Part shown: positions 1-27,862 of the stretch, piece after piece
Layout: every line of letters begins with the position of its first letter
Position numbering within the stretch: the first letter of the stretch is position 1
Source: a virus
Lineage: Duplodnaviria; Heunggongvirae; Uroviricota; Caudoviricetes
Virus record (IMG/VR): IMGVR_UViG_2561511241_000007
Location: 1-27,862 of that record
Reading direction: 5' to 3' (one strand)
Length of the DNA: 27,862 nucleotides
Program-made: the position numbers and the translations under genes
Notes under the pieces: model-generated
Told to the model about the DNA's origin: nothing
The model's input: only the letters and a program-made list of their open reading frames with translations
Databases searched by the model: none

Positions 1-582
1 TTACCCTATAGGTGCTACTGGCCATTCAATATCCGGTGCAGTTGTTGTATTAACACGGTTCAGCAACACCCGATACTTCTTCCAGGCTTCCAGCAACGAG
101 ATTTCTTCCTCCGTTGCGATTTCCAGATCTACAGCATCCTGAAGTGGCGCAATATGCTCACTGGCTACCTGCATCAGGCTGTTTTTTGTTTCTTCTGCCT
201 CCCGAATCCGGAACAGTTTTTCTGCTTCCGTATCCTTCACCCAGGCTGTGCCGTTCCACTTCTGATATTCCCCTCCCGGCGACAACCAGGTAACATTTTC
301 CGGTAACGGACCGAGTTCAGAAATAAATAACGCGTCGCCGGAAGCCACGTCATAAACCGTTTTACCCCGATGGTCTTCAACGAGATGCCACGATGCCTCA
401 TCACTGTTGAAAACAGCCACGAAGCCTGCCGGAATATCTGGTGGTGCAATATCGGTACTGTTTGCTGGCAGACCTGTATGAGGCGGAATATATGCGTCAC
501 CTTCACCAATAAATTCATTAGTTCCGGCCAGCAGATTATAAATTTTTATGGTCCGTGCTTGTTCACTCATTCTGAATGCCAT
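1..582 (-). CDS. tfa: tail fiber assembly protein (lambda Tfa-like)
   Basis: Complete 193-aa ORF (ATG at 582, TAA at 1-3); translation matches lambda Tfa as recalled; start overlaps the stf stop (TAATG). Confidence 0.9.
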
Positions 583-1400
583 TATGCAAGCCTCACAATA
601 TAGTTAAATGCGATGTTTTTGACGGTGTTTTCCGCGTTACCCGCAGCGTTAACGGTGATGGTGTGTCCATGTGAGCCAATCGCAACCGAGTGCGTATGCG
701 CACCAATACCTACAGTATGTGCATGTGCGCCAGAACTTGCTGCAGTACCAGACAGCGAGTGGGTATGAGCACCTGCTGACTGTGTCTGAATACGTTGATA
801 ATACGATCTACTGGAAGAAGTCCCCGGGCTTACTTGATACTGTGAATCCTTGACATAAGTGAACCCACCGCCATCATAAAATGCTAACGCAGAACCGCCG
901 CCTCCTGGCCAACGAATACCATTACCATGAGTATGAGCACCGGCAGACCCCGTAGAGCCACTCAGACTGTGCGTATGCGCCCCGGTGTTATTCGTGGATT
1001 TAGTGCCGTAATCAAACGACGATGTGGTTTTCGTCCCCAAATCCGTACTGGATGCGCTGGCGCTGTGGGTGTGCGATTTAATGCCGTCCTGTTCCTGAGA
1101 CAATACGGCACGACCACTGGCAGGTTTGCCCTTAATCGTCCAGCCACGCATATCAGGGATCACGCCTGACGGATAAGCGGCTGCAAGTTTCGGGTAGGCA
1201 GATTTGTCAAAAGTCTGCCCCTGCATCAGGGCATAACCAGACGGAACGGTATCTGATGGCCACGGGATTGGTGCGCCGACTGGGTAGCTTTCTGGTGGAA
1301 GATTTTTCGAGGTATAAACTTCTGCCCAGCCTTCCTCAAAACCATAACCGTCTCTTGAAGAACGGTAGAACAGACCACCATTTCTGTAATGCGCCTTCAT
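582..1400 (-). CDS. stf: side tail fiber protein, C-terminal receptor-binding portion only (lambda Stf-like, truncated)
   Basis: Translation from GAPIPWPSD to the [11 protein letters not shown] end matches the lambda Stf C-terminus as recalled, including GAHTHS repeats; the N-terminal ~500 aa of a full Stf are absent; reading frame is open to 1448 but the first plausible start is MKAHYRN at 1400. Confidence 0.8.
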
Positions 1401-1596
1401 GACCGTTAATATTTTCCTGCTCAACAGAACACAGCGTGGTGACATCAATATCCTGCTTTTGTCCTGCGGTAAACTGCACCTCTTTGATTGTACAGCTCAG
1501 ACCAAGATAGCTGGCAGAATCCAGGGTTTCTGCTGTTACCGGTGCAGACGAAATCATAATTTTCGTCAGTTGCGAACGCTCAAAATTAGAGGACAT
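1336..1596 (-). CDS. hypothetical protein, possible N-terminal remnant of a deleted tail gene
   Basis: 87-aa ORF starting [10 protein letters not shown] with an AGGAGA Shine-Dalgarno 7 nt upstream; sits where a major tail protein is expected after the connector genes; overlaps the stf fragment out of frame by about 64 nt. Confidence 0.35.
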
Positions 1597-1610
1597 ACTC
1601 GTCTCCTGAA

Positions 1611-1640
1611 AATAAAAAACCCGCCAGCGGCGGGTGGGTA
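1611..1640 (-). terminator. rho-independent terminator (minus strand)
   Basis: Hairpin CCCGCC-AGCG-GCGGG followed on the minus strand by TTTTTTATTTT. Confidence 0.55.
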
Positions 1641-1655
1641 AAATCATTAACGACC

Positions 1656-2000
1656 TCAGGCTATTACCTGAAATTCAAGCGTGGCTCTGCTCAGACGGGA
1701 ATCAGGATCATAACCCTGAGTTTTAGAAATAACGGAGGGTGCAAGTTGCCTTACCGCATCAAGCGCCTGCTCACGGATATCATCTGCGTCATCAGGTACT
1801 GTTGCCCAGACATCGATCTGCACGGTAATTCTGGATTCAGCCTGACCATCAAGCACATCAGACGCAGTGTCAGACACCACAGAAAATACCAGCCATGGCG
1901 GAGATACCGCAGGCTTTCCCTCCGTCAGCGGGACCACATAAGGATAAACCTGTCCTCCGGCCAGTTGAGACAGCAGGGAATACAGTGTGGTCTCTCTCAT
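1656..2000 (-). CDS. tail completion / tail terminator-like protein (DUF3168-like)
   Basis: 114-aa ORF in the position and size class of HK97 gp11-type proteins; start overlaps the upstream gene. Confidence 0.55.
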   Translation of the reverse strand: MRETTLYSLLSQLAGGQVYPYVVPLTEGKPAVSPPWLVFSVVSDTASDVLDGQAESRITVQIDVWATVPDDADDIREQALDAVRQLAPSVISKTQGYDPDSRLSRATLEFQVIA

Positions 2001-2446
2001 TTACTTAAGACCTCATCAATAGCCTGATTCATTCGCTGTATGGCAATCTGTGCTGCCAGTTCCTCTGTCGTATCGAAAGCCGGGCGAATGAACGGATGCG
2101 CGGGCATGTTTATCGTTCCCAGCTCCACAAAGCGCCAGTAAAACGCATTTCGGGGATCACTGGCTTTCATGCTGTTATCACTGTTTCCGGTCCGCAGGTT
2201 CCGTCCACGAATGTGGACACCCGAGATAATTTCCCCCCGACGCTTTGAACGCTGAGTGAGAACAACCACATTTTTCTTCAGTTTCCCGGTTCGCTCCGGC
2301 GCACGTTCAACAACTGCATCCCGCATAACTTCAGCACCGGCACGGGTGGCATCGCGCAGTACCTTATTGTTTTCTGCCCTGCTGAGCGTCTCCAGATCCC
2401 GTGCAATATCCGCCAGACCTGAAAAATCAAGACTGAAATCCATCAC
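1997..2446 (-). CDS. HK97 gp10-family head-tail joining protein
   Basis: 149-aa ORF with the gp10-family character; translationally coupled to flanking connector genes. Confidence 0.7.
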   Translation of the reverse strand: MMDFSLDFSGLADIARDLETLSRAENNKVLRDATRAGAEVMRDAVVERAPERTGKLKKNVVVLTQRSKRRGEIISGVHIRGRNLRTGNSDNSMKASDPRNAFYWRFVELGTINMPAHPFIRPAFDTTEELAAQIAIQRMNQAIDEVLSK

Positions 2447-2781
2447 ACATTCCCCTTCTGAGAACAGAGTATCTCAAGCCGTGTGGCACGAGCATCCGGT
2501 ATCGGCGGACCGTCTATACTCAGAATCGCGCCTTTGAATGCACCAGTCAGCACTTTCAGACATGAAGTTGCTGTTACATCTCGCCGGAATCTCATCCAGA
2601 CCCTCACTGTAGCCTGAGCAGTTTCTGCGCCTCCGGATATTCTCTCCCTGCCACTGATCCCCTTAACTTCTGCCCATATGGTTGCCCCCTCCGTCATTGT
2701 TTCCACAGGGTGCCCTGACGGAGACCGAACGGTGGTGGCATTCAGAATAACCACACGATCACGTAATCTTCCTGCCTGCAT
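2443..2781 (-). CDS. head closure / head-tail adaptor protein
   Basis: 112-aa ORF between gp6-like and gp10-like genes, typical position and size. Confidence 0.65.
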   Translation of the reverse strand: MQAGRLRDRVVILNATTVRSPSGHPVETMTEGATIWAEVKGISGRERISGGAETAQATVRVWMRFRRDVTATSCLKVLTGAFKGAILSIDGPPIPDARATRLEILCSQKGNV

Positions 2782-2789
2782 GAATCCTC

Positions 2790-3095
2790 CTATGTTCCGG
2801 GATGAAATCGATACATCCGCAGTCCGGTATAGAAAAAATCAGGCACTGCATCCTGCATTTCCCTGTTCTCGTACCAGTAGCCAACCAGTTGCATAAGACG
2901 CAGTTTTATCAGAGGTGTTATTACAAGCCCGGTCGTATCCTGCTCAGAAACAGTTTCATCGTAAAGCGTCCGGTTTAAAAACTTTTCAGCCTCTTCCCTG
3001 GCAGCAGCCAGATACATCATAAGAAGAGAATTCTCCTGTTCATTGTCATCATCAATCCGGCACTGAACACGAAGCTCTTCCAGAGTGGGCATCAT
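2790..3095 (-). CDS. head-tail connector (gp6-like) protein
   Basis: 101-aa acidic ORF in the position typical of gp6-like connector proteins downstream of the capsid gene. Confidence 0.6.
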   Translation of the reverse strand: MMPTLEELRVQCRIDDDNEQENSLLMMYLAAAREEAEKFLNRTLYDETVSEQDTTGLVITPLIKLRLMQLVGYWYENREMQDAVPDFFYTGLRMYRFHPGT

Positions 3096-3106
3096 TTGGG
3101 CAACCT

Positions 3107-3295
3107 CTATGAATGCTGTTTTTTAGACTTATCAGCCCCCCGCGCAACAGGTGTTCTCTTATCAGAGACAATCCCAGCTGCAGTGGCAATTTCGCGTACC
3201 CGTTCGGGTAATTCTTTATCTTCATACTCACCGGCCCGAATAATCTCAACACGCATACCGTCCGGTGACCATTTCAGATCTTGTTTCAGGATCAT
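3107..3295 (-). CDS. hypothetical small protein
   Basis: 62-aa ORF filling the gap between the capsid gene and the connector gene; no recognisable motif. Confidence 0.3.
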   Translation of the reverse strand: MILKQDLKWSPDGMRVEIIRAGEYEDKELPERVREIATAAGIVSDKRTPVARGADKSKKQHS

Positions 3296-3345
3296 GATTC
3301 TTTCACCTGTCAGAACAGGGGCGCACTTCTGCGCCCCCTGAATGA

Positions 3346-4551
3346 TTACGCTGCTGCAATCTTCAGCAGTTTGATGGCCTGCGAATCGACCAGCATCCCG
3401 CCGGTGCGCTTGGTGGTATAAAAACCGACAAACGGTTTATTGGTGTACGGGTCACGCAGAATGCGGGTGCCGATACGGTCAACGATGGTGTAACCCCGTT
3501 TGAAGTTACCAAATGCAATGGCTTTCGCATCAGCGGCGATATCCGGCATCTGTTCGTTTTCAGCGATACCGTAACCCGCCAGAGAGGACGGCTGCCCCAG
3601 TTCCAGCCCCGGACGCCACAGATAGTTACCCTCGCTGTCTTTAAGCAGACGGATGGCAAACAGGCTGTTGTTGTTCATCATGAACTTCGCGCCAGTGCGG
3701 TGTGCCTTACGCAGCGTGTAAATCAGTTTGATAATGGCATCTGCGGTCACTGCCGTCGCTTCGCCGGATACAATATGCTGAAGTTTGCCGAACGCCCGGA
3801 CCTTGTCGGTTTCATCAGTGGACTCATACGCCAGGAACCCTTTCGGCTTCTTGGTACCATCGCCGGTGGTAAAGGCAATTTCTTCCTGTTCGGCAAATTC
3901 GGTTGCCAGCTCGCTGTTGATCCAGGCCTCCACGTTGAAGAAAGCATCATCCAGCATTTTCTGGGTGGCCTGCGGGTTACCGTAGATTTCCCCCATGAAA
4001 GGTTCAATCAGTCCCAGTTTTGAGGTGGCAGTCTGGGAGCGCGCGTCAGTCTCGCCAACCCATCCGGAAGCCGTGCCGCCCAGATTCACCAGTTTTTTGT
4101 AGTCGGAACCGCCAACGGTGATCACCGTGGCTTCCTGGCGCATCACCACTTCATCTTTCAGCAGATTGAGAATGTTGCGATCCAGTTCTTCCGGCACGGC
4201 ATAGCCGCCGTCTTCATCGGTGCCCACCTGTAATGCCTTACGCTCCAGATCGCGCAGACCATCTTCACGGCCTTTACGCAGGAAGCCCACAAACGCTTCT
4301 TTATGCTCGGTGGCCAGTTTATTTTGCGCACCACCTGCCGGACGTTTCAGCTCAAGCAGCTCTTTTTCAAGATCGCTTTTGAGATTTTCCAGCTCGCTGA
4401 GTTTTCCGTTCAGGGTTTCCACCTGCCCGGCAAGTTTGCCTTTTTCCTGCTCAATCGCCTCAACGCGCTTGTCGTTCTTTGCTTTGAAGTCGTCAAACTT
4501 CTGCTGCAGCTCCTGCGCGACCTGTTCGACATCTTTAATATCAACCGCCAT
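3346..4551 (-). CDS. major capsid protein, HK97 family
   Basis: 401-aa ORF with an N-terminal coiled-coil delta-domain-like region followed by an HK97-fold-like body; directly downstream of the prohead protease. Confidence 0.9.
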   Translation of the reverse strand: MAVDIKDVEQVAQELQQKFDDFKAKNDKRVEAIEQEKGKLAGQVETLNGKLSELENLKSDLEKELLELKRPAGGAQNKLATEHKEAFVGFLRKGREDGLRDLERKALQVGTDEDGGYAVPEELDRNILNLLKDEVVMRQEATVITVGGSDYKKLVNLGGTASGWVGETDARSQTATSKLGLIEPFMGEIYGNPQATQKMLDDAFFNVEAWINSELATEFAEQEEIAFTTGDGTKKPKGFLAYESTDETDKVRAFGKLQHIVSGEATAVTADAIIKLIYTLRKAHRTGAKFMMNNNSLFAIRLLKDSEGNYLWRPGLELGQPSSLAGYGIAENEQMPDIAADAKAIAFGNFKRGYTIVDRIGTRILRDPYTNKPFVGFYTTKRTGGMLVDSQAIKLLKIAAA

Positions 4552-4565
4552 CGTATTTCTCCTGA

Positions 4566-5252
4566 TTAGAAGTTCAGATTTTTCAGTGCATTCAGTGCAG
4601 AGCCCACATCCTCAGCGTCGCGCAGGGACAGTGCGCCATAGCCCCCGGCCATGAATGCTTTGGCCTGGGTACGGGAGAGTCCGACATCACGCAGGACTCT
4701 TTCGATTTTTTTCTGTTCGGGGATTTCCCCGCGGGCCAGTGCGTTCTTGACGTCGCTGATCCGCGCCTCGTCGTTAGACGGGAACGTCACCAGGCTGACT
4801 TCCCAGAGGTCGATTTCTTTCAGCAGAAAGGCTTCTTTGCTCCGGTCGTATTCCCAGTCTTTCAGGACGTACCCAATAGAAAGGCCGGTTAACGAACCGG
4901 CCTTCATGTGTGCATGTGCGCGTTTTGCGAGGGGATCATCATCAATAAGCAACCGTCCCCTGACGTAAAGCCCGACATCGTCTTCCTTCATTTCGGTGTA
5001 AACACCGATGGGTTCATCCATGCGGTGCTGCCAGAGCAGCGCAGGTAACGCTTTTCTGTCACTCCACGCCCGCAGGGAAGCAGCAAATGCCCCGGACATC
5101 ACCACATCATCGTGGCTGTCCTTTACACCAAAGACGGAGCCATACCCTTCAAACTCACCGGAGTCACTGACAGATTTCAGACTCAGCGGTACATCAAGAC
5201 GTTGTTTCGTCTGCATTGGCGTTATCCTTCTGCTTACCGGCTTTACTGCCAT
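4566..5252 (-). CDS. prohead protease, HK97 family
   Basis: 228-aa ORF between portal and capsid genes; alternative start at 5216 would reduce the overlap with portal. Confidence 0.8.
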   Translation of the reverse strand: MAVKPVSRRITPMQTKQRLDVPLSLKSVSDSGEFEGYGSVFGVKDSHDDVVMSGAFAASLRAWSDRKALPALLWQHRMDEPIGVYTEMKEDDVGLYVRGRLLIDDDPLAKRAHAHMKAGSLTGLSIGYVLKDWEYDRSKEAFLLKEIDLWEVSLVTFPSNDEARISDVKNALARGEIPEQKKIERVLRDVGLSRTQAKAFMAGGYGALSLRDAEDVGSALNALKNLNF

Positions 5253-6435
5253 CGGAGGGTTTCGTGGTCATGTTCATCGGGGTGAGATAGACATCACCAC
5301 CGGGACGCGGATTCATATCTTCCAGGTCGCGGCAGTCATTAGGAGAGTAAATTCCCCAGTTGATCCCGGTGGCGTAGGCTTCAAAACGGGACTTCATATC
5401 CCCGCGCAGTAACGCCCCGGCGTTAAATTTGGCGTAATAAACGCCCTGCTTACTTTTTCGTACCAGTCCGGTGTTGATCCGCTGCTCAATGCGGGTCAGA
5501 TACGGCACCAGTGAATAGTTGATAAATCCCAGCCCCAGCTCTTCGATATTGTTGAAGGTGGCGCGATCGGTGTTCTGCACCATGTGCAACGGCACCCGAA
5601 ACAGACGACAGATTTCTTCAAGCTGAAACTTGCGGGTTTCCAGGAACTGGCTGTCCTCGGCGTTCAGCGCCATCGACTTCCAGTCCAGCCCCATCTCAAG
5701 GATCATCGGGCGGTGAGCATTGCCAAGCCTGGTGTGACGCTCCTCAAAATCTTTCTTCAGGCGCTCGTAAGCCTGATCTGACAGCGTCTGCTCTGTACGC
5801 AACACACCGGACGTCACCGCACCATTGCTGAACAGTCTGGCCCCGTGCTCTTCGGTCGCTGCCGCCAGCGATATTGCCTCGCGGGCATAGGCGATGGGAT
5901 TCAGCCCCACCAGTCCGTCCAGCGTCAGCGTGCGCACATGCCAGATATCCTCCTGGCTCAGTACATCCGTGGAGCCGTCCGGGAATGTGACCTGATAGAC
6001 CGGCTCCCAGCTACTGTTAAGCTTCGGTACCACACAGCCAGGATCGACGGGCAGCAGTTCAGCCACTTCGCCAAATGCTTTCACTTTGTAGGCGTAAAAG
6101 TTTCCCCTCAGGCACAGACAGGTGACCACCAGCTCCCAGAACTCCTGCGGCGTCATATATCCATTGGGATGCGTGGAGATCAGCTTATGCAGACGTTCGC
6201 CGGTGGCTCTCTGTTTCAGGCTGCCGTTCAGGTGATACAGATTGCAGGGCAACATCCCGACCGACTCTGCCAGCACCCTGACGCAGGAAAAAACCGCCGT
6301 CAGTCGCATGGCCCGCTGGCTGCTGATCTGCTTTCCGGTATAGGTGTCGTATGACAGCCCGATAGCATCCGCCAGCTCTGCTGGCGTGGTCACCGGCGCG
6401 TCACTTTTTCGTTGAAATAATCCCGAAAAGAACAC
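5194..6435 (-). CDS. portal protein, HK97 family
   Basis: 413-aa ORF downstream of the large terminase, size and position typical of a portal. Confidence 0.85.
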   Translation of the reverse strand: MFFSGLFQRKSDAPVTTPAELADAIGLSYDTYTGKQISSQRAMRLTAVFSCVRVLAESVGMLPCNLYHLNGSLKQRATGERLHKLISTHPNGYMTPQEFWELVVTCLCLRGNFYAYKVKAFGEVAELLPVDPGCVVPKLNSSWEPVYQVTFPDGSTDVLSQEDIWHVRTLTLDGLVGLNPIAYAREAISLAAATEEHGARLFSNGAVTSGVLRTEQTLSDQAYERLKKDFEERHTRLGNAHRPMILEMGLDWKSMALNAEDSQFLETRKFQLEEICRLFRVPLHMVQNTDRATFNNIEELGLGFINYSLVPYLTRIEQRINTGLVRKSKQGVYYAKFNAGALLRGDMKSRFEAYATGINWGIYSPNDCRDLEDMNPRPGGDVYLTPMNMTTKPSDGSKAGKQKDNANADETTS

Positions 6436-6617
6436 TATTTACCTCCGCCGACAGACGGCTGTGTACGGTCGAGATATCGCGCCACCAGCCACGACCAGAA
6501 CAGGCACAGCGCCCCGGCAACAACAAAACCCGCCGGGGGATAAATCAGCCAGGCACCATACGCCAGCAAAAGCGCACCCAGCACGCCCACCAGTGGCGCG
6601 AGAATTATCAGAAACAT
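6435..6617 (-). CDS. small membrane protein between terminase and portal
   Basis: 60-aa ORF that is almost entirely hydrophobic (two predicted TM helices). Confidence 0.45.
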
Positions 6618-6628
6618 AATGACCTCGG

Positions 6629-8386
6629 TTAAAGCGAGCGGATGCCCACGCTGACCAGATGTTCAGACAGATCCGGCTCCGGTTCACCACCATTGACCAG
6701 CATCCGGCTCATTGCTGTAAACATCGCAACAGGGCCGTCGATTTTGGCTTCCAGCGTGGATTTATTCGGGAAGATATTGTCGTTTTTGTCCGGTTTTACC
6801 GTAACGTTAGACATCATCCAGTTCATGACCGGATGATTGCTGTGATGGAAACGTCCGGCATAGACCAGTGATTCCGTTTCCTTCATGGCCTCTGACAGAT
6901 TGCGAACCGTCTGCGGAACCTCCACCAGCGGTATCCCTTCTTCAGCCAGTGCTAGGCTGAACTGCATCGCGCTCCACGGGTCAAATCCCAGTTCCCTGAG
7001 GTTTTCACCACCAATCCATTCCAGTAAGTCACTTTTTATCTGAGCATGATCGATAACATCACCATCCGTCAGAATCAGCTTATCCATCTCCGCCCACTTC
7101 CGGTAAAGTTCTGCCTGCTGCCGCGAGCATCGTTCCAGCCGTCCTTCCGGGAGCCAGAATTTAAAATCGGCATGAACATGCCCGTTATCCGTTCGCCAGA
7201 GTTTTGCCGCCGCACAGATATCAATCTTATGAGCAAGGTCAACGCCGACCCACATGGGATACGTTTTCAGCTCATGTCGCGGGGCAATGTATTCGCACTT
7301 CTCCCACTTAATCATGTCCATCCAGGCAGACTCTGCTGTTACCCACACATTCATGTGTTTGGTAAAAAAATTCACCCGCGCAGAGACCTGTTCTTTCGCT
7401 TTTTTCGCCAGACGACGCAGATCATCCCAGCGTTTACAGATGCCCAGGCCAGGATTCGCTTTCTGCCAGACCGTTTCATCAAACGGATCATCTCCCTCAT
7501 CGAGGGTGTAAATAATCGCAAAGTAGGAGTCGTCTTTTACAGCGCCCTCCACGTCGCTGTTATAGCCACGCAATACCTTGATGGCATAATCACGCTGCTC
7601 GTAACAAATCCCTTCCTTGTTAAACCCTGCCGTGGTGATACCAAATAAAAGGGACTGCAGACGGGCACCGGTTGCCGTTTCCAGAACGTCCCACACGTCA
7701 CGGGTTTTATGTGCATGCAGCTCATCAATAATGGCGCAGTGGATGTTCAGACCATCCAGGTTGTTTGCATCCGAAGAAAGCGGTTCAAATTTTGATGCGC
7801 TCTGCTCCTGGTAAATCGCCAGCTTGTTGAAATCAAACAACCGCCCGAGTGTCGACCGGGCTTTTCTGACCATATTTTTGGCGTCTTCAAACACGATTCT
7901 GGCCTGGTCACGCGTGGTTGCGGCTGAATACACCTCAGCACCGCCTTCACCATCTGCCCCCGTCATATACAGACCGATACCCGATGACAGGGTTGATTTT
8001 GCGTTTTTACGGGCAACTTCGTTGTATGCTGTCCGGAACCGGCGCACCATCACCGGGCGCCCGCTGCCATCGCTGCGCATGACAACTTCCCCGGTCTCTT
8101 CATTGACCAGCGGAATGACAAAACCAAAAATATTAATGAGGATAAATACATGCCAGTCCATCAACTCAATAGGCTGGCCTGCCAGCGCCCCTTTTACATG
8201 AGGCACAAATTTGTAGAAATTCAGGATGTGCTGCGCACGTGGTTCACTGAAATAAATCCCCCGCTCTTCGCCGTACTTTAGATCATCAAGAAAACGCTGG
8301 CAGGCCAGGCGGACAAATTCGCCAGCAACAATTTCTCCTGCAACAACACGTTCGGCGTAGCGGATCCCGTCAGCCACTTTTGCCAT
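6629..8386 (-). CDS. terminase large subunit
   Basis: 585-aa ORF with an N-terminal ATPase region and C-terminal nuclease region; start overlaps the small-subunit stop. Confidence 0.9.
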
Positions 8387-11308: not shown

Positions 11309-11565
11309 CGTGACTTTTCCTTTTAGTGGGTGAGCCTGCGCCTGGGGGTGACCAGCCCACAGAGAAAGTCACACTGACCATCCCGTAAGCTCACCCCTGA
11401 AAGGCTCTGTGGTTTTTGATGTGCGCCGGGCGTGACGCAAAGAAATGAAATAAGACTTACCTGAAATTAAGGTTAATCTGAGGATTTAAACCATTTTTAA
11501 TGCTTAGTAATATAAATACGTCTCTCTGGAGGAGAGAGATGCTTATTCTTCTTCATGGACTTTGT

Positions 11566-11600
11566 CCCGCGGCTTTAATCCGACAGCCGCGCCCTTTTTT
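11566..11600 (+). terminator. rho-independent terminator (plus strand)
   Basis: Stem CGCGGC / GCCGCG followed by CCCTTTTTT. Confidence 0.5.
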
Positions 11601-11624
11601 CGCCAATATAAACCTGGTTGAACT

Positions 11625-11650
11625 CATACAAAAAGCTCGCCGAAGCGAGC
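11625..11650 (-). terminator. rho-independent terminator (minus strand)
   Basis: Stem GCTCGC-CGAA-GCGAGC followed on the minus strand by TTTTTGT. Confidence 0.55.
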
Positions 11651-11682
11651 CTGTTAAAAGTATATTTACCGTTACAAATGGA

Positions 11683-11765
11683 CCGTCACCGGGGACTCGA
11701 ACCCCGCACCACAAAACAACAATACGTGTTATGCACTCTTACCCGATGAGTTAGTGACGGTTTTG
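11683..11765 (-). other. tRNA-like element (possible pseudo-tRNA)
   Basis: Minus-strand sequence has a perfect 7-bp acceptor stem (CCGTCAC/GTGACGG), D-stem, canonical T-arm (CGGGG-TTCGAGT-CCCCG) and a 3' TCCA, but an aberrant ~30-nt anticodon/variable region. Confidence 0.4.
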
Positions 11766-11812
11766 TGTTATGTGGGAATCCAGCCTGACGACAGAATTAC
11801 TGGAACACCTTG

Positions 11813-11845
11813 CAAAAAAAAGCCAGCCACCAGAGACTGGCTGGC
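11813..11845 (-). terminator. rho-independent terminator (minus strand)
   Basis: Stem GCCAGCC / GGCTGGC with a 10-nt loop, followed on the minus strand by TTTTTTTT. Confidence 0.65.
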
Positions 11846-12016
11846 AAATTACAAAGTTTAAATGATTCATCATACAATCGTCGTTACAGGGGAATCCTGC
11901 GGTGCAGCAAGATACAAAAATGTAAGCAAACCAACAATAAGCAAGCACAGCATATTCGGAATTAGTTATAATTTTAACGATGCAGTGCTTATTCAGCATG
12001 CAATTCTGCAAATTAC

Positions 12017-12043
12017 CAAAAAAAACCGCCTGCTAAGGCGGTG
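12017..12043 (-). terminator. rho-independent terminator (minus strand), downstream of the tRNA array
   Basis: Stem ACCGCC / GGCGGT followed on the minus strand by TTTTTTTT. Confidence 0.65.
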
Positions 12044-12403
12044 GTCAAATCAGTAAGTGCTGAAGAGTATTATTATAATACAAGTGAGGTGTCGGGTGCC
12101 TCCCGAAATACCTGACATTCCATCAGATACTGTAGTTTCCCGGCTAAACTACTTAAACCACCCCGCACATGGAGTTCACCTCATTTTGTGATGTTAACAA
12201 CATCGGGATAGTGCATAATCAGCCCCTGCCAGGAAATATCAAAAATCCCACCAATAATGCACTATTCCGATAGCGTCAAAAAACACAGCACCGAAATCAT
12301 AACTGGTCTCCGTTATAATTCGGGAGAGCGATAAAGGATATACGAGACCTTTCCCCGCGAAAAAAACGCCAGTGCTGAAAAACCTATACCTCATTTGTTT
12401 TTC

Positions 12404-12478
<75 letters not shown>

Positions 12479-12481
12479 ATA

Positions 12482-12559
<78 letters not shown>

Positions 12560-12560
12560 C

Positions 12561-12637
12561 TGGACCGCCACCGAGGACTCGAACCTCGCACACTCAACTT
12601 AAAGGGTTAACACTCTTTCTTGGTGAACTGGTGGCGG
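12561..12637 (-). tRNA. tRNA-like gene, anticodon uncertain (UUU read in a loop with C33), possibly degenerate
   Basis: Perfect acceptor stem and canonical T-arm (CGAGG-TTCGAGT-CCTCG); D-arm lacks canonical features and position 33 is C. Confidence 0.45.
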
Positions 12638-12638
12638 T

Positions 12639-12714
12639 TGGTGGCCCTTGCTGGATTCGAACCAGCGACCTGGCGATTATGAGTCGCTCGCTCTCACCAC
12701 TGAGCTAAAGGGCC
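12639..12714 (-). tRNA. tRNA-Ile2 / Met (anticodon CAU), ileX/ileZ-like
   Basis: Canonical 76-nt cloverleaf with perfect acceptor and T stems; closely resembles E. coli ileX as recalled. Confidence 0.85.
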
Positions 12715-12740: not shown

Positions 12741-13454
12741 TCAAAAATCAAGCCCTTGCATAGATACATATCTGTCTGGCGGGAAGCCATAATAGCGGTG
12801 AAATACAGAGATAAAGTAGGATCTACTTGAATAACCGCATTTTTCTGCTACAGCCTGTCCATATCCATGCCGGGAGCATAACATATTTACAGCAACCCGC
12901 ATCCGTTCCTCAAGTAACAAATTACTGAACCTGAGACCTTCATCCTTGAGTTTTTTCTTTAACAAGCTCTCACTCATATGCAACTGTAGAGCAATCGCAC
13001 CAAGCGTCCAGCTTGCTGATATATCTGTTTGAATTATCGCTCTGACTTTGGCACTTATACTGGATAAACATCCACTTAAAAATAATAACATCCGTTCATC
13101 TGATTCAAACAACGACAGGCAGGCCATCATAAGAAACATGTCCGTGGTCTCTCCGGAAAGTCTCTGGCTGGTAATTAAAGCCACAGCCAACGCAGGATTG
13201 TTGGGTTCCTGCGACAAGTAAAGCGGAATGTCAGTCAGAGGAGTTCTTGTCAGCTTATGCTGACTTTCCAGATATTGACTTACTATAGAATGGTTTATAT
13301 CGACAATTTTAACTTTGCCATAATGCATAAGGAAAAGCTCCCTGATGCATTTGGTGGCCAAAACAACTGAGCCGGGCTTAAGTGACAACGTATCCTTTTC
13401 AAGAAAAATATTAATTGGGGAGCAAACCATGATAACTGAACAGACAACAGCCAT
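12741..13454 (-). CDS. AraC-family transcriptional regulator, AppY-like
   Basis: 237-aa ORF, AT-rich; C-terminal AraC HTH; N-terminus and overall pattern resemble DLP12 AppY as recalled. Confidence 0.75.
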   Translation of the reverse strand: MAVVCSVIMVCSPINIFLEKDTLSLKPGSVVLATKCIRELFLMHYGKVKIVDINHSIVSQYLESQHKLTRTPLTDIPLYLSQEPNNPALAVALITSQRLSGETTDMFLMMACLSLFESDERMLLFLSGCLSSISAKVRAIIQTDISASWTLGAIALQLHMSESLLKKKLKDEGLRFSNLLLEERMRVAVNMLCSRHGYGQAVAEKCGYSSRSYFISVFHRYYGFPPDRYVSMQGLDF

Positions 13455-13870
13455 TATAATTTTACTCTAATTAGCAAAAGGTTAGCTCAATTATATCCCA
13501 AAGAGGTAAATTCTCATCAACACATAAGCAAATGACTGGCTGGTGCCGCTAACACCCACAAGCCGCCCATTTACCACAAATAAAAAGGATAACCTGCCAT
13601 ACCCACCATCACAAGCCGGGTCCGTATTAACTGGCAGCGTTCGCGTGAAAGGTAAGTATTCTGCGCAATTCCCCGACTGTCGCCGGTTCGGTGATGCTTA
13701 ATTCATTAAATACCACTCTGGCGGTTTCGGCCATGTCCTACTGTTTTAGCATGCCTTTTCCCTGTTCTGGTTAACGTGACATACCAATAACTCTTGTCGA
13801 AAAAGCCAGCAAGCTGAAAGACCAGTATTCGCAACCACCAGCGTGTTTAATGTACCGCTTTTCGGGCATA

Positions 13871-13896
13871 AAAAAACCCGCTCGGAGGCGGGTTTT
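13871..13896. terminator. bidirectional rho-independent terminator (tR'-like for the minus-strand late transcript)
   Basis: Stem CCCGC-TCGGAG-GCGGG flanked by AAAAAAA upstream and TTTTAT downstream on the plus strand; about 50 nt downstream of the predicted late promoter. Confidence 0.6.
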
Positions 13897-13939
13897 ATAT
13901 TCTTTGCCATCGCGTACAAAATCAGCAAAATATCAAATA

Positions 13940-13975
13940 TGCACGAAATATATGCCTTTTAATCTACTTTTGCAA
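13940..13975 (-). promoter_or_regulatory. candidate late promoter (pR'-like) immediately downstream of Q
   Basis: Minus strand reads TTGCAA, 17-nt spacer, TATATT; placement between the Q stop and the terminator mirrors lambda pR'/tR'. Confidence 0.5.
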
Positions 13976-13979
13976 TACT

Positions 13980-14654
13980 TTACAGTGAAAATGCCGCCTT
14001 TTGTTTTGAACGTGTTCTCGTCACGAACAATAAAGCCTCACTATCCAGCCGATGAAAAGTGTGTTTCATTGCAACCCAGTGACCAGTAAATGTTTTGGAC
14101 CAGTTTTTAGTTGTCACTCCCGCCAGTAATGCCAGCTCCTGGTATTCATAACCTTCCCCACCAAAAAGTTCTGCTTTTACTGCCTGCGCCGCCAGCCAGA
14201 TTAATTTTTTCAGGCGTTCCTGCGTTTTCCCTGCAATTTTTCTGGTACCGGATTGAGTATTAAATTCATTCCACGCCCACTGTGTTATCGCGATCTGATA
14301 TTCCCAACAAATACTCCCGCTGTAACACCACAACAACCAGGCTTTATGATGTTCTTCAAGAGACAGAACAGCCCGCCGCCACGATGATGTCGAAAACTCA
14401 ACCGGACTGACCAGAGGAATTGACGTCCCCTTCGCCAGCGATTGCTTTCCCGGGATTGGTGGATAATCCCGCGTTATCATTTTTCCAGTCACTTCATCGC
14501 GGTACCGGATTTTTTTTCGCCTGTAACGCCCTGTATCGAACATGGCATTCTCTTGCCAGGCTTCAAGCTGACCTTTTGTTGCCCCACTCAAATCAGCGGT
14601 GGCGATAATGAGCTGCTCGCGCACAAACTGTAAATACTGGTTATTCATGCGCAC
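13980..14654 (-). CDS. late-gene antitermination protein Q
   Basis: 224-aa ORF directly upstream of the promoter/terminator pair and downstream of rusA, the canonical Q position. Confidence 0.65.
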   Translation of the reverse strand: MRMNNQYLQFVREQLIIATADLSGATKGQLEAWQENAMFDTGRYRRKKIRYRDEVTGKMITRDYPPIPGKQSLAKGTSIPLVSPVEFSTSSWRRAVLSLEEHHKAWLLWCYSGSICWEYQIAITQWAWNEFNTQSGTRKIAGKTQERLKKLIWLAAQAVKAELFGGEGYEYQELALLAGVTTKNWSKTFTGHWVAMKHTFHRLDSEALLFVTRTRSKQKAAFSL

Positions 14655-15010
14655 TCCAATTCTGTGATTTTTATCCCCAGCCGCCCACCAGGAACGAGCT
14701 GACCGCGCACAATATTGATTTCATCAAACTGCTCGTCGTCTATAAGTAGTCCGGCATGCGTCAGCGCATCCAGTGGTGCCTTCAGGATATTGTCCAGGTC
14801 GCGGCGGAGCTTATCCGGTGGCTCCGCAATAATCTTTATCGCCAGCCTTCCGGACAGGTTTAATTTCAACCGCTGCTGGCGAACAATTAGCGCCACATCA
14901 TGGCGATAACGCTTTCCGGCCTCCGAGATGAAATACGTATTGCCATGACGTCGCCAGTAGGTATTCACCGTCGGCGGGTAAGGTAAAACAAATTCTATGC
15001 GTTCAGTCAT
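14645..15010 (-). CDS. rusA: Holliday junction resolvase RusA
   Basis: 121-aa ORF with RusA motifs (PPTVNTYW, DLDNILKAPLDALTHAGLLIDDEQ). Confidence 0.85.
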   Translation of the reverse strand: MTERIEFVLPYPPTVNTYWRRHGNTYFISEAGKRYRHDVALIVRQQRLKLNLSGRLAIKIIAEPPDKLRRDLDNILKAPLDALTHAGLLIDDEQFDEINIVRGQLVPGGRLGIKITELECA

Positions 15011-16513: not shown

Positions 16514-16669
16514 TTACTCCTCAGGTTCGTAAGCTGTGAAGACAGCGACCTCCGTCTGGCCGGTTCGGATTCGTACCTCGCAGAGGTCTTTCCTCGTTAC
16601 CAGTGCCGTCACTATGACGGTTAAACAGATGACGATCAGGGCGATTAGCATCGCCTTTTGCTGCTTCAT
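16514..16669 (-). CDS. hokD: Hok/Gef-family small toxin (HokD/RelF-like)
   Basis: 51-aa product matches E. coli HokD as recalled; the frame is open a further 19 codons upstream to 16726. Confidence 0.9.
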   Translation of the reverse strand: MKQQKAMLIALIVICLTVIVTALVTRKDLCEVRIRTGQTEVAVFTAYEPEE

Positions 16670-17293
16670 AGCCTGCTTCTCCTTGCCTTTCGGCACGTAA
16701 GAGGCTAACCTAGATTTGCCGTTCATAGATTGAGCCTCAGATTAATGTTAAGCGTCTTGCAGGACGCGTAATGTTAACTGGGGCTTTTCTCTATCTGCCT
16801 TTGGTGTTCATGCCTGAGACAGATAGCCTCAAGCACCCGCAGCCATTCTACTTAACTCCCGTTACCTCGCCAATATGAAATCAGTCAGAAAGGCGATCCA
16901 TAAGAACAACAGCAAGGCAATAAATTGCCATTACAGCAGCAATAGCCAGCGCACATTTGAGAACCAGCACCACAACCTCCTGTATTGGACGTACACCAGT
17001 CCTGATAAATATGAGGCTGTCTCGTCAGTGATTCAATACAACTATTGGGTATAGTTTCTGTGATTTTGTTCTGTAGAAATGGAACACAACAACCAGTCAC
17101 CACCAGCACTTCTTTAAATACGCCAAGTCCGACGCAAGCTAACTTTCTAGTCCGCTTTGAGCGAAAAGCAGACTGTCACGCGTTGAAGTTAATTGTATTA
17201 CTTAGATAAACACTATCATTTTCCTGACGTTAAGTTGTATCTTTGATAGGATTAAAAAACGTATAGATAGCTTATGCTACTGAGGGAATAAAA

Positions 17294-22403: not shown

Positions 22404-22460
22404 TTTCTGGTGACGTTTGGCGGTATCAGTTTTACTCCGTGACTGCTCTGCCGCCATTTT
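22404..22460 (+). ncRNA. dicF: DicF small RNA (ftsZ-targeting antisense sRNA)
   Basis: Sequence matches the 53-nt K-12 DicF as recalled except the last base, followed by a T-tract; lies between ydfC-like and dicB. Confidence 0.7.
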
Positions 22461-26881: not shown

Positions 26882-26971
26882 TGGCGGAGAGAGGGGGATT
26901 TGAACCCCCGGTGGAGTTGCCCCCACTCCGGTTTTCGAGACCGGTCCGTTCAGCCGCTCCGGCATCTCTCC
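26882..26971 (-). tRNA. serU: tRNA-Ser (anticodon CGA), serU-like
   Basis: 90-nt minus-strand sequence with a long variable arm and anticodon loop UCUCGAAAA, ending CCA; matches serU as recalled. Confidence 0.9.
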
Positions 26972-27064
26972 GTTCAGATGGTTGCCATGATGCCAGGAAA
27001 TTTGGCATTTTAACAGTCCCTGTCCGTGCAATTTTGTTCAAGTGACGAGTTTGCGAGCAAAACG

Positions 27065-27862
27065 ATGATTAAGTGGCCCTGGAAAGTACAAGAATCAGCA
27101 CATCAAACTGCCCTTCCCTGGCAGGAAGCACTATCGATCCCCCTTTTAACGTGTCTGACGGAACAGGAACAAAGCAAATTAGTCACTCTTGCCGAACGTT
27201 TTTTACAGCAAAAGCGGCTTGTTCCTTTACAGGGCTTTGAACTGGATTCATTAAGAACCTGCCGGATAGCACTTCTATTTTGCCTACCCGTTCTGGAATT
27301 AGGACTGGAATGGCTGGATGGTTTTCATGAAGTCTTAATTTATCCTGCGCCATTTGTGGTCGATGATGAATGGGAAGACGATATCGGTCTGGTGCATAAC
27401 CAACGTATTGTTCAGTCAGGTCAGAGCTGGCAGCAAGGGCCTATCGTTTTGAACTGGTTGGATATACAAGATTCTTTTGATGCTTCTGGTTTTAACCTGA
27501 TTATTCATGAAGTCGCTCATAAGCTGGACACCCGTAACGGCGATCGCGCCAGCGGAGTTCCCTTTATTCCGTTGCGTGAGGTTGCTGGCTGGGAACACGA
27601 TCTTCATGCTGCAATGAACAACATTCAGGAAGAAATCGAATTGGTTGGCGAGAATGCGGCGAGCATTGATGCTTATGCTGCCAGTGATCCTGCTGAATGT
27701 TTTGCCGTACTTTCTGAATATTTCTTTAGCGCCCCAGAACTTTTTGCTCCTCGTTTCCCTTCATTGTGGCAACGTTTCTGCCAATTTTATCAACAAGATC
27801 CTTTGCAGAGACTGCATCACGCTAATGATACAGACTCGTTTTCGGCGACGAATGTTCATTAA
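27065..27862 (+). CDS. mtfA: Mlc titration factor MtfA (chromosomal flank)
   Basis: 265-aa product from [14 protein letters not shown] matches E. coli MtfA/YeeI as recalled, including the HEVAH zinc-peptidase motif; the frame is open upstream to 27026. Confidence 0.9.

Follow-up and report, generated by a model that had tools for sequence, protein, structure and literature searches.

A putative third allele of the Psr family of AraC/XylS regulators in the late region of a lambdoid prophage of porcine Escherichia coli

PsrA and PsrB, the named members of the Psr family in O157:H7 Escherichia coli of the enterohaemorrhagic type (EHEC), induce GadE and YhiF, and acid survival is raised by PsrB, which binds to the promoters of hdeA and gadE (PMC10877973; PMC8565820). 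Both regulators activate gadE, yhiF, and hdeA, with indirect repression of type III secretion encoded by the enterocyte effacement locus (LEE) (PMC10877973; PMC8565820; PMC13502914), although binding to the hdeA and gadE promoters and acid resistance have been experimentally shown for PsrB only (PMC10877973). The psr genes are associated with loci of type III secretion system (T3SS) effectors and with Pch regulators (PMC10877973). Two other regulators of this kind, AppY of the DLP12 prophage of E. coli K-12 and PatE, respectively activate gadE directly and raise acid resistance (PMC10057817), and activate gadE and hdeA (PMC10877973). Here we describe an AraC/XylS gene, hereafter psr, located in a 27,862-nt stretch of viral DNA (positions 1 to 27,862 of IMG/VR record IMGVR_UViG_2561511241_000007, hereafter the window). 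The sequence of the window recurs with 100% identity in the chromosome of ETEC1749, a porcine enterotoxigenic E. coli (ETEC), in which this region is a lambdoid prophage beside tRNA-Ser and mtfA. Sequence comparisons indicate that psr is a third allele of the Psr family.

Assignment of the gene to the Psr family

The psr open reading frame (ORF; 12741-13454, minus strand) starts with ATG and encodes 237 aa without frameshift or truncation, the defects that an earlier note on this DNA had named as fatal to its proposal. It is collinear end to end with 237-aa homologues, and the start is backed by an alignment from residue 1 with these homologues and with AppY; older annotations begin at an internal Met and give 195 aa. 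The description of a low-GC, prophage-carried gene of the AraC family in that note was borne out. The GC content of psr is 41.6%, versus 49.2% for the window and 47.4% for the neighboring Q gene, and its product exceeded the cut-offs of two Pfam domains, HTH_AraC PF00165 (47.2 bits, gathering cut-off 26.6) and HTH_18 PF12833 (41.1 bits, cut-off 33.6), the AraC domain matches spanning residues 155-229.

The phmmer search matched the psr protein to the DNA-binding domain of GadX (3mkl) with an E value of 1.3e-19. In the AlphaFold model (mean predicted local distance difference test score, pLDDT, of 70.9), the C-terminal domain was confident, and residues 130-232 superposed on 3mkl with a template modeling score (TM) of 0.91, a root mean square deviation of 1.4 A and 42% identity. 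The C-terminal DNA-binding domain, of about 100 aa and with two helix-turn-helix (HTH) motifs, that is typical of AraC/XylS factors was recovered by Pfam, by phmmer, and in the model. Full-length Foldseek matches of the model were Rns, CsvR, and ToxT (E 1e-9 to 1e-6, TM about 0.4), the N-terminal half having pLDDT values of 42-75, and the YdeO profile aligned to residues 1-229 of the protein.

The psr protein is 91.6% identical to ECs1087 of strain Sakai, which we identify as PsrA because ECs1087 was equated with psrA in a 2026 paper (PMC13502914). It is also 91.6% identical to the AraC copy of O-island (OI) 57 of EDL933, taken as PsrB, which is the single AraC gene in a slice covering most of OI-57 (NZ_CP008957.1 1905274-1905987). 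The two reference proteins share 90.7% identity, which matches the published value of 90% between PsrA and PsrB (PMC10877973), and they thus fit this pair. The closest sequenced phage copy is the AraC protein WCJ00157.1 of phage phiSTEC1575-Stx2k, with 94.5% identity. The segment of the second HTH that corresponds to the recognition helix (SSRSYFISVFHRYYG) is identical in the OI-57 copy, and K166 is the counterpart of AppY K170, a residue needed for DNA binding (PMC10057817). The ratio of non-synonymous to synonymous substitution rates (dN/dS) between psr and PsrA or PsrB was 0.18-0.19, indicating that psr is under purifying selection. Taken together, the identities, the recognition helix, K166, and the dN/dS values thus point to psr being a constrained third allele of the Psr family. 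The gene combines an identity of about 90% or more to both PsrA and PsrB with a position in the late region of a lambdoid prophage, between Q and the lysis genes, as seen in the window and in four reference loci.

The best NCBIfam models for the psr protein were YdeO NF007407 (109.9 bits versus an equivalog cut-off of 348) and GadX NF007432 (91.1 versus 500). Since its scores are below every NCBIfam equivalog cut-off, it is not a YdeO or GadX equivalog. Among 5426 complete E. coli genomes, 725 harbored psr homologues with at least 88% nucleotide identity, the median copy number per genome being two; the source names of ten protein clusters of homologues were generic labels only, the name "Psr" never being used.

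The late region and the psr cassette

All features of the locus lie on the minus strand, a detail absent from the earlier note. They are given here in the direction of transcription:

14645-15010, minus strand: RusA gene
13980-14654 (PGAP start 14648), minus strand: late-gene antiterminator Q of the Q82 family, 224 aa (Pfam PF06323)
13947-13975, minus strand: pR'-type late promoter, with -35 TTGCAA at 13975-13970, a 17-nt spacer, and -10 TATATT at 13952-13947 (consensus scan and conservation)
13927-13935, minus strand: TGATATTTT, candidate sigma70-dependent pause or Q-loading element (conserved motif, putative function)
13870-13896, minus strand: intrinsic terminator tR' (stem followed by U7, aligned with the phage 434 terminator)
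13571-13752 (PGAP pseudogene 13571-13734), minus strand: decayed small winged helix-turn-helix (wHTH) ORF (PGAP and alignment)
13490-13520, minus strand: candidate own promoter of psr (scan and invariant -10)
12741-13454, minus strand: psr-family AraC/XylS gene, 237 aa (Pfam and homology)
12639-12714, minus strand: tRNA(CAT) of the ileZ type (ARAGORN, Rfam, PGAP)
12486-12558, minus strand: tRNA-Thr (ARAGORN, Rfam, PGAP)
12404-12478, minus strand: tRNA-Gly (ARAGORN, Rfam, PGAP)
11309-12403: AT-rich spacer of 1.1 kb between the tRNAs and TerB
Further downstream, beyond the spacer: TerB, DUF3927, two holins, M15 endolysin, HNH, TerS, and truncated TerL

The Q protein matched Pfam PF06323, the Q82 family (PMC9388147), over 216 of the 220 model positions (E 1.9e-90). 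It shares 97.8% identity with Q of phage vB_EcoS-689R5, 74.5% with the phage 434 Q, which carries the annotation "Q82-like," and 65% with the Gifsy-1 Q, in the record of which phage 82 Q is cited. A search of the PDB returned no sequence relative of Q82-type Q. The locus has the layout of a Q82-type unit: Q belongs to PF06323, and the promoter is separated from the late genes by an intrinsic terminator.

The pR'-like promoter and the terminator described in the earlier note are both present, the hexamers and the hairpin being conserved with phage 434 and others. The promoter (TTGCAA-17-TATATT, 13975-13947) begins 5 nt past the Q stop codon. The promoter-consensus scan gave 8 matches versus 3.9 +/- 2.2 expected; a single match is therefore not significant, and conservation makes the stronger case for pR'. 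Both hexamers and the initially transcribed sequence are kept in phages 606R7, PPompW, and 434, all with a Q82-type Q, and conservation in these three phages extends from the Q stop codon up to the hairpin. The terminator tR' (13896-13870) consists of a CCCGC stem, a 6-nt loop, and GCGGG followed by U7 (-14.5 kcal/mol), and its counterpart in the phage 434 record, to which it aligns, is annotated as a terminator. Judging from these sequences, pR' and tR' would together give an RNA of about 70 nt; an Rfam search of 12741-13975 found no family for this RNA nor anything else.

In lambdoid late promoters, a sigma70-dependent pause element is where Q loads onto RNA polymerase. The predicted transcription start of pR' is at about 13940, and an extended -10-like sequence, TGATATTTT (TGnTATnnT), lies at about +6 to +14. 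The motif TTTG(A/G)TAT was found at an equal offset in phage 434, Klebsiella phage 2 LV-2017, and Cronobacter phage phiES15, which have a Q82-family Q; TGnTATnnT at about +6 to +14 was recovered in four Q82-family phages from three genera. We infer that TGATATTTT is a candidate pause or Q-loading element.

The earlier note had placed psr as the first gene after this promoter and terminator. It is the first intact ORF, but not literally the first gene, because the decayed wHTH ORF (13571-13734) lies in between. PGAP annotates this small ORF as a frameshifted "TrmB family regulator." In the window it has lost 1 nt near 13669, and translation from the upstream ATG, should this be the genuine start, would meet a TAG at 13740-13738. 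Its intact versions (65-73 aa) are winged-helix proteins belonging to phrog_331, with weak TrmB/MarR-like similarity in Pfam and PHROG matches. The small ORF is always upstream of psr, being intact in EDL933 OI-57 and in the Stx2k phage and frameshifted in O157 Sp4. Inspection by eye revealed no convincing promoter for it, and its product may act together with psr or regulate it. At 13588/13589, 36 bp are deleted, which has removed the 3' end of the small ORF together with the terminator hairpin that precedes psr. In the other three alleles, the small ORF and psr are separated by a hairpin (GCCUUCAG...GAAGGC) with a U6 tail; this hairpin folds in the O157 and Stx2k alleles and is absent from the window. 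The deletion junction occurred in exactly 27 of the 5426 complete E. coli genomes, all of them porcine, and psr at 99% identity or more was likewise present in 27 of these genomes, again porcine.

That psr may also have its own promoter, as suggested in the earlier note, is plausible. A -10 hexamer that fits the consensus perfectly (TATAAT, 13495-13490) is located 36 nt ahead of the psr ATG, the candidate promoter matching at 10 of 12 positions in the scan; the hexamer and its flanking bases are invariant in all four psr alleles aligned. The regulation and expression of psrA in uninduced EHEC (PMC13502914) and the phenotypes of psr deletions in uninduced EHEC (PMC10877973) fit such a promoter. 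There is no terminator between psr and the tRNA cluster (12404-12714), which starts 26 nt past the psr stop codon, so that transcripts from this promoter would continue into the tRNAs.

The limits of homology with other phages and prophages delineate a cassette around psr. Phage vB_EcoM-606R7 has a matching Q, pR', tR', and tRNA trio, with 90 bp replacing window positions 12745-13870 (1126 bp). For O157 Sp4, EDL933 OI-57, and phiSTEC1575-Stx2k, homology to the window extends only from 12493 or 12639 up to 13881-13894, and the antiterminator differs at all three loci. The order antiterminator, wHTH, psr, ileZ-type tRNA was recovered in O157 Wll001, Sakai Sp4, EDL933 OI-57, and phiSTEC1575-Stx2k. 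Since homology is limited to the stretch between the tRNA region and the hairpin, the mobile unit comprises the hairpin, the wHTH ORF, psr, and the ileZ-type tRNA. The tR' hairpin and this tRNA, at the edges of the cassette, probably act as recombination anchors.

The PsrA locus (ECs1087, Sp4, Sakai) shares with the window the hairpin, wHTH ORF, psr, and ileZ-type tRNA, as well as the placement after the antiterminator and ahead of the lysis genes in the late region, and its product has 237 aa with the extended start. It differs by a small, different Q upstream, by a CPBP protease gene between Q and the cassette, by the retention of the terminator between the wHTH ORF and psr, and by its host, a LEE-positive EHEC. 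The PsrB locus (z2104, OI-57/CP-933O, EDL933) is similar downstream (tRNA, TerB, DUF3927, lysis genes) but has a DUF1133-type antiterminator, and neither its small ORF nor its internal terminator is damaged. In phiSTEC1575-Stx2k, the cassette matches that of the window and is directly upstream of the tRNAs, whereas the antiterminator is of another type, the wHTH ORF has not decayed, the internal terminator is retained, and stx2k lies directly after the tRNAs, where the window has no toxin genes.

This position of stx2k indicates that psr sits in the classic cargo slot controlled by Q. As in the stx locus of Shiga-toxin phages, where Q antitermination controls the expression of the cargo, psr follows Q, pR', and tR', beside ileZ/argN/argO-type tRNAs and before the lysis genes. 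In contrast to stx, the psr cargo is a transcription factor with a candidate promoter of its own and not a toxin, and its expression should matter in the lysogen even without induction.

Several other sequences of this slot were considered. A degenerate tRNA-Lys(UUU)-like sequence (12561-12637, minus strand), detected only at a relaxed ARAGORN threshold, lies between tRNA(CAT) and tRNA-Thr, and an odd 82-nt "tRNA-Val(AAC)" (11679-11760, minus strand) lies in the AT-rich spacer; both are below the Rfam tRNA threshold. We rejected the spacer (11309-12403) as a toxin-gene remnant: it resembles only the unannotated tRNA-to-holin spacer of phage SerU-LTIIb. Its AT-rich part 11417-12282, with no annotated gene, is 76-78% identical to the spacer between tRNA-Gly and holin of this LT-IIb enterotoxin phage (KU052038.1) and to vB_EcoS-683R6, and is thus a conserved spacer in the cargo slot. 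The small RNA (sRNA) HnrS was dropped as a lead; it has been published in the late genes of other prophages, and we found no tie to the psr locus.

Proposed function and alternatives

The best explanation, to which we assign a probability of about 0.72 from sequence and published work, is that psr is a third Psr allele, which a lambdoid prophage carries as cassette cargo in its late-operon slot, and that it would be expressed from its own promoter and would activate gadE, yhiF, and hdeA. In the lysogen, psr would be transcribed from its conserved promoter, the transcript running on into the tRNAs. The protein would use its two C-terminal helix-turn-helix motifs to bind AT-rich promoter DNA and would activate gadE, yhiF, and hdeA, leading to increased glutamate-dependent acid resistance (GAD). 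Upon prophage induction, Q-modified RNA polymerase would pass tR' and transcribe psr first, along with the late genes, a co-transcription suggested by gene order and homology. The target genes and the acid resistance in the porcine host are proposed because of the 92% identity to PsrA and PsrB and the conserved second recognition helix. The idea of a lysogenic-conversion regulator, put forward in the earlier note, agrees with the published roles of these 92%-identical proteins (PMC10877973; PMC8565820; PMC13502914).

Several observations weigh against this explanation. The psr protein differs from each of PsrA and PsrB by 20 residues, which in the case of PsrA include K167I and R211W in or beside the recognition helices; K167, in the first recognition helix, is T in the OI-57 copy. 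Because of these differences, its targets could differ from those of PsrA and PsrB. The published association with T3SS effectors was not recovered, no effector gene being annotated in the psr prophage, and the only PerC/Pch-like gene, located outside the window, is part of an element that interrupts terL; such an association is, however, no attribute of the protein itself. The putative psr promoter has a poor -35 (ATGAGA or TTGATG). With terL split by this 15.5-kb insertion and a frameshifted integrase, the prophage looks defective, which makes a productive late phase, and a strong role of Q, doubtful. Finally, the mapping of psrA to locus tags in the literature is inconsistent. Reviews put psrA (z1789) in OI-50 and psrB (z2104) in OI-57, but an AraC gene was missing from Sakai Sp6 and from CP-933N of the re-assembled EDL933, where psrA would be expected (z1789/OI-50), as well as from Sakai Sp10; the Sakai copy sits in Sp4 (ECs1087). 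This mismatch probably stems from the original EDL933 prophage assembly or from a mapping error.

The earlier note had likened psr to AppY and proposed an alignment with AppY and other prophage AraC regulators. That psr is the functional counterpart of DLP12 AppY, controlling hya, the app operons, gadY, and nhaR instead of the Psr regulon, now appears highly improbable. The two proteins do align over their full length (28.9-30% identity, E 1e-37), both being prophage-borne AraC/XylS activators of similar size with a common N-terminal M-x-x-V-C-S-V motif and DNA-binding lysine, and since AppY also directly activates gadE (PMC10057817), the AppY and Psr regulons overlap. Nevertheless, AppY is remote (29-30%) compared to PsrA and PsrB (91.6%), and even to the probable PatE, 38% identical to psr over the full length, and the recognition-helix residues of psr and AppY differ widely. 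The loci are different as well, AppY being located at the end of DLP12 next to ompT and psr in the late operon. Given these differences and the scores below every equivalog cut-off, psr is not an AppY counterpart and belongs to the already named Psr family. PatE itself (z0321, OI-8, probably the AraC gene at NZ_CP008957.1 309101-309844) is another AraC-like activator from a prophage region, but far more distant than PsrA and PsrB and located in a degraded prophage at a tRNA-Thr gene. A role directed mainly at the phage, in which psr would drive the phage tRNAs or modulate late, lysis, or lysogeny genes with secondary effects on the host, is very unlikely in our view. It would account for the tRNAs located so close to psr without an intervening terminator, for the ileZ-type tRNA that always accompanies the cassette, and for the distant AraC genes (38-41% identity) of lambda-like phages isolated as phages, but the published Psr targets are host genes (PMC10877973). 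Moreover, psr is dispensable for the phage, since vB_EcoM-606R7 exists as a phage isolate without psr and yet has the same Q, tRNAs, and lysis module.

It is also unlikely, though less so, that psr is silent cargo in a decaying prophage and has no measurable effect in these pig strains, owing to H-NS silencing, a weak -35, a weak ribosome-binding site, and a prophage unable to complete its lytic cycle. The AT-rich cassette (42-43% GC), the adjoining wHTH pseudogene, the interrupted terL, the frameshifted integrase, and the behavior of EHEC psrA, as if under control linked to Hha/H-NS (PMC13502914), would all be expected in that case. However, the psr ORF is intact with a dN/dS of 0.18-0.19, its sequence is at least 99% identical across the 27 porcine genomes, and the -10 hexamer is invariant. 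The genes for Q, the holins, and the endolysin have likewise remained intact, and deletion of close homologues from uninduced EHEC gives phenotypes (PMC10877973).

Prophage context and significance

The element of about 15.5 kb within terL covers window positions 1-7373 and continues past the left edge (NZ_CP122712.1 2153586-2169036). The N-terminal part of terL is at window positions 7356-8384 and the C-terminal part at 2169037-2169780 of that record. The element encodes an integrase (5961-7373, minus strand), HTH regulators, BRO-N, an Icd-like protein, a DUF927 primase, a single-stranded DNA-binding protein, and the PerC/Pch-like regulator, and it has separate capsid, protease, portal, connector, HNH, TerS, and TerL genes of its own. 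With a layout similar to that of Sakai Sp7 / CP-933C, it looks like a capsid-forming satellite inside the terminase gene of a potential helper. The neighbors of the prophage are tRNA-Ser/mtfA at one end (window 26882-27862) and potB at the other (NZ_CP122712.1 2190989). These flanks and the frameshifted integrase suggest a composite or rearranged prophage, possibly formed by recombination between two lambdoid prophages. Three RNAs of the window scored above the Rfam gathering score: IS009 RNA (41-239, minus strand) in the terL element, the sok antitoxin RNA (16664-16838, minus strand) next to hokD, and the DicF sRNA (22405-22456, plus strand) in the early region near dicB.

The 36-bp deletion raises the possibility, tentative and rather doubtful, that psr has been rewired in the porcine ETEC/oedema-disease lineage. 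With the insulating terminator deleted and the wHTH gene decayed, transcription from pR' and under Q would run into psr and the phage tRNAs, both through constitutive pR' transcription leaking past tR' and through Q-driven transcription on induction. If this were true, Psr levels would be higher or linked to the SOS response, and GAD acid resistance would consequently be higher, in strains that lack the LEE, whereas the context studied so far is that of LEE-positive strains.

The working picture of such regulators is unchanged; the family is already characterized, and the lineage-specific loss of the insulating terminator adds modest extra interest. The Psr regulators, which tie prophage carriage to GAD acid stress and type III secretion, have been studied only in LEE-positive EHEC, and a distinct psr allele is fixed in porcine pathogenic E. 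coli. The psr cassette moves among lambdoid phages with different antiterminators, and its cargo slot is that of stx, the two being neighbors in Stx2k phages. If the allele is active, prophage carriage would improve the survival of pig ETEC and oedema-disease E. coli in stomach acid, and toxin phages could co-transfer an acid-resistance regulator.

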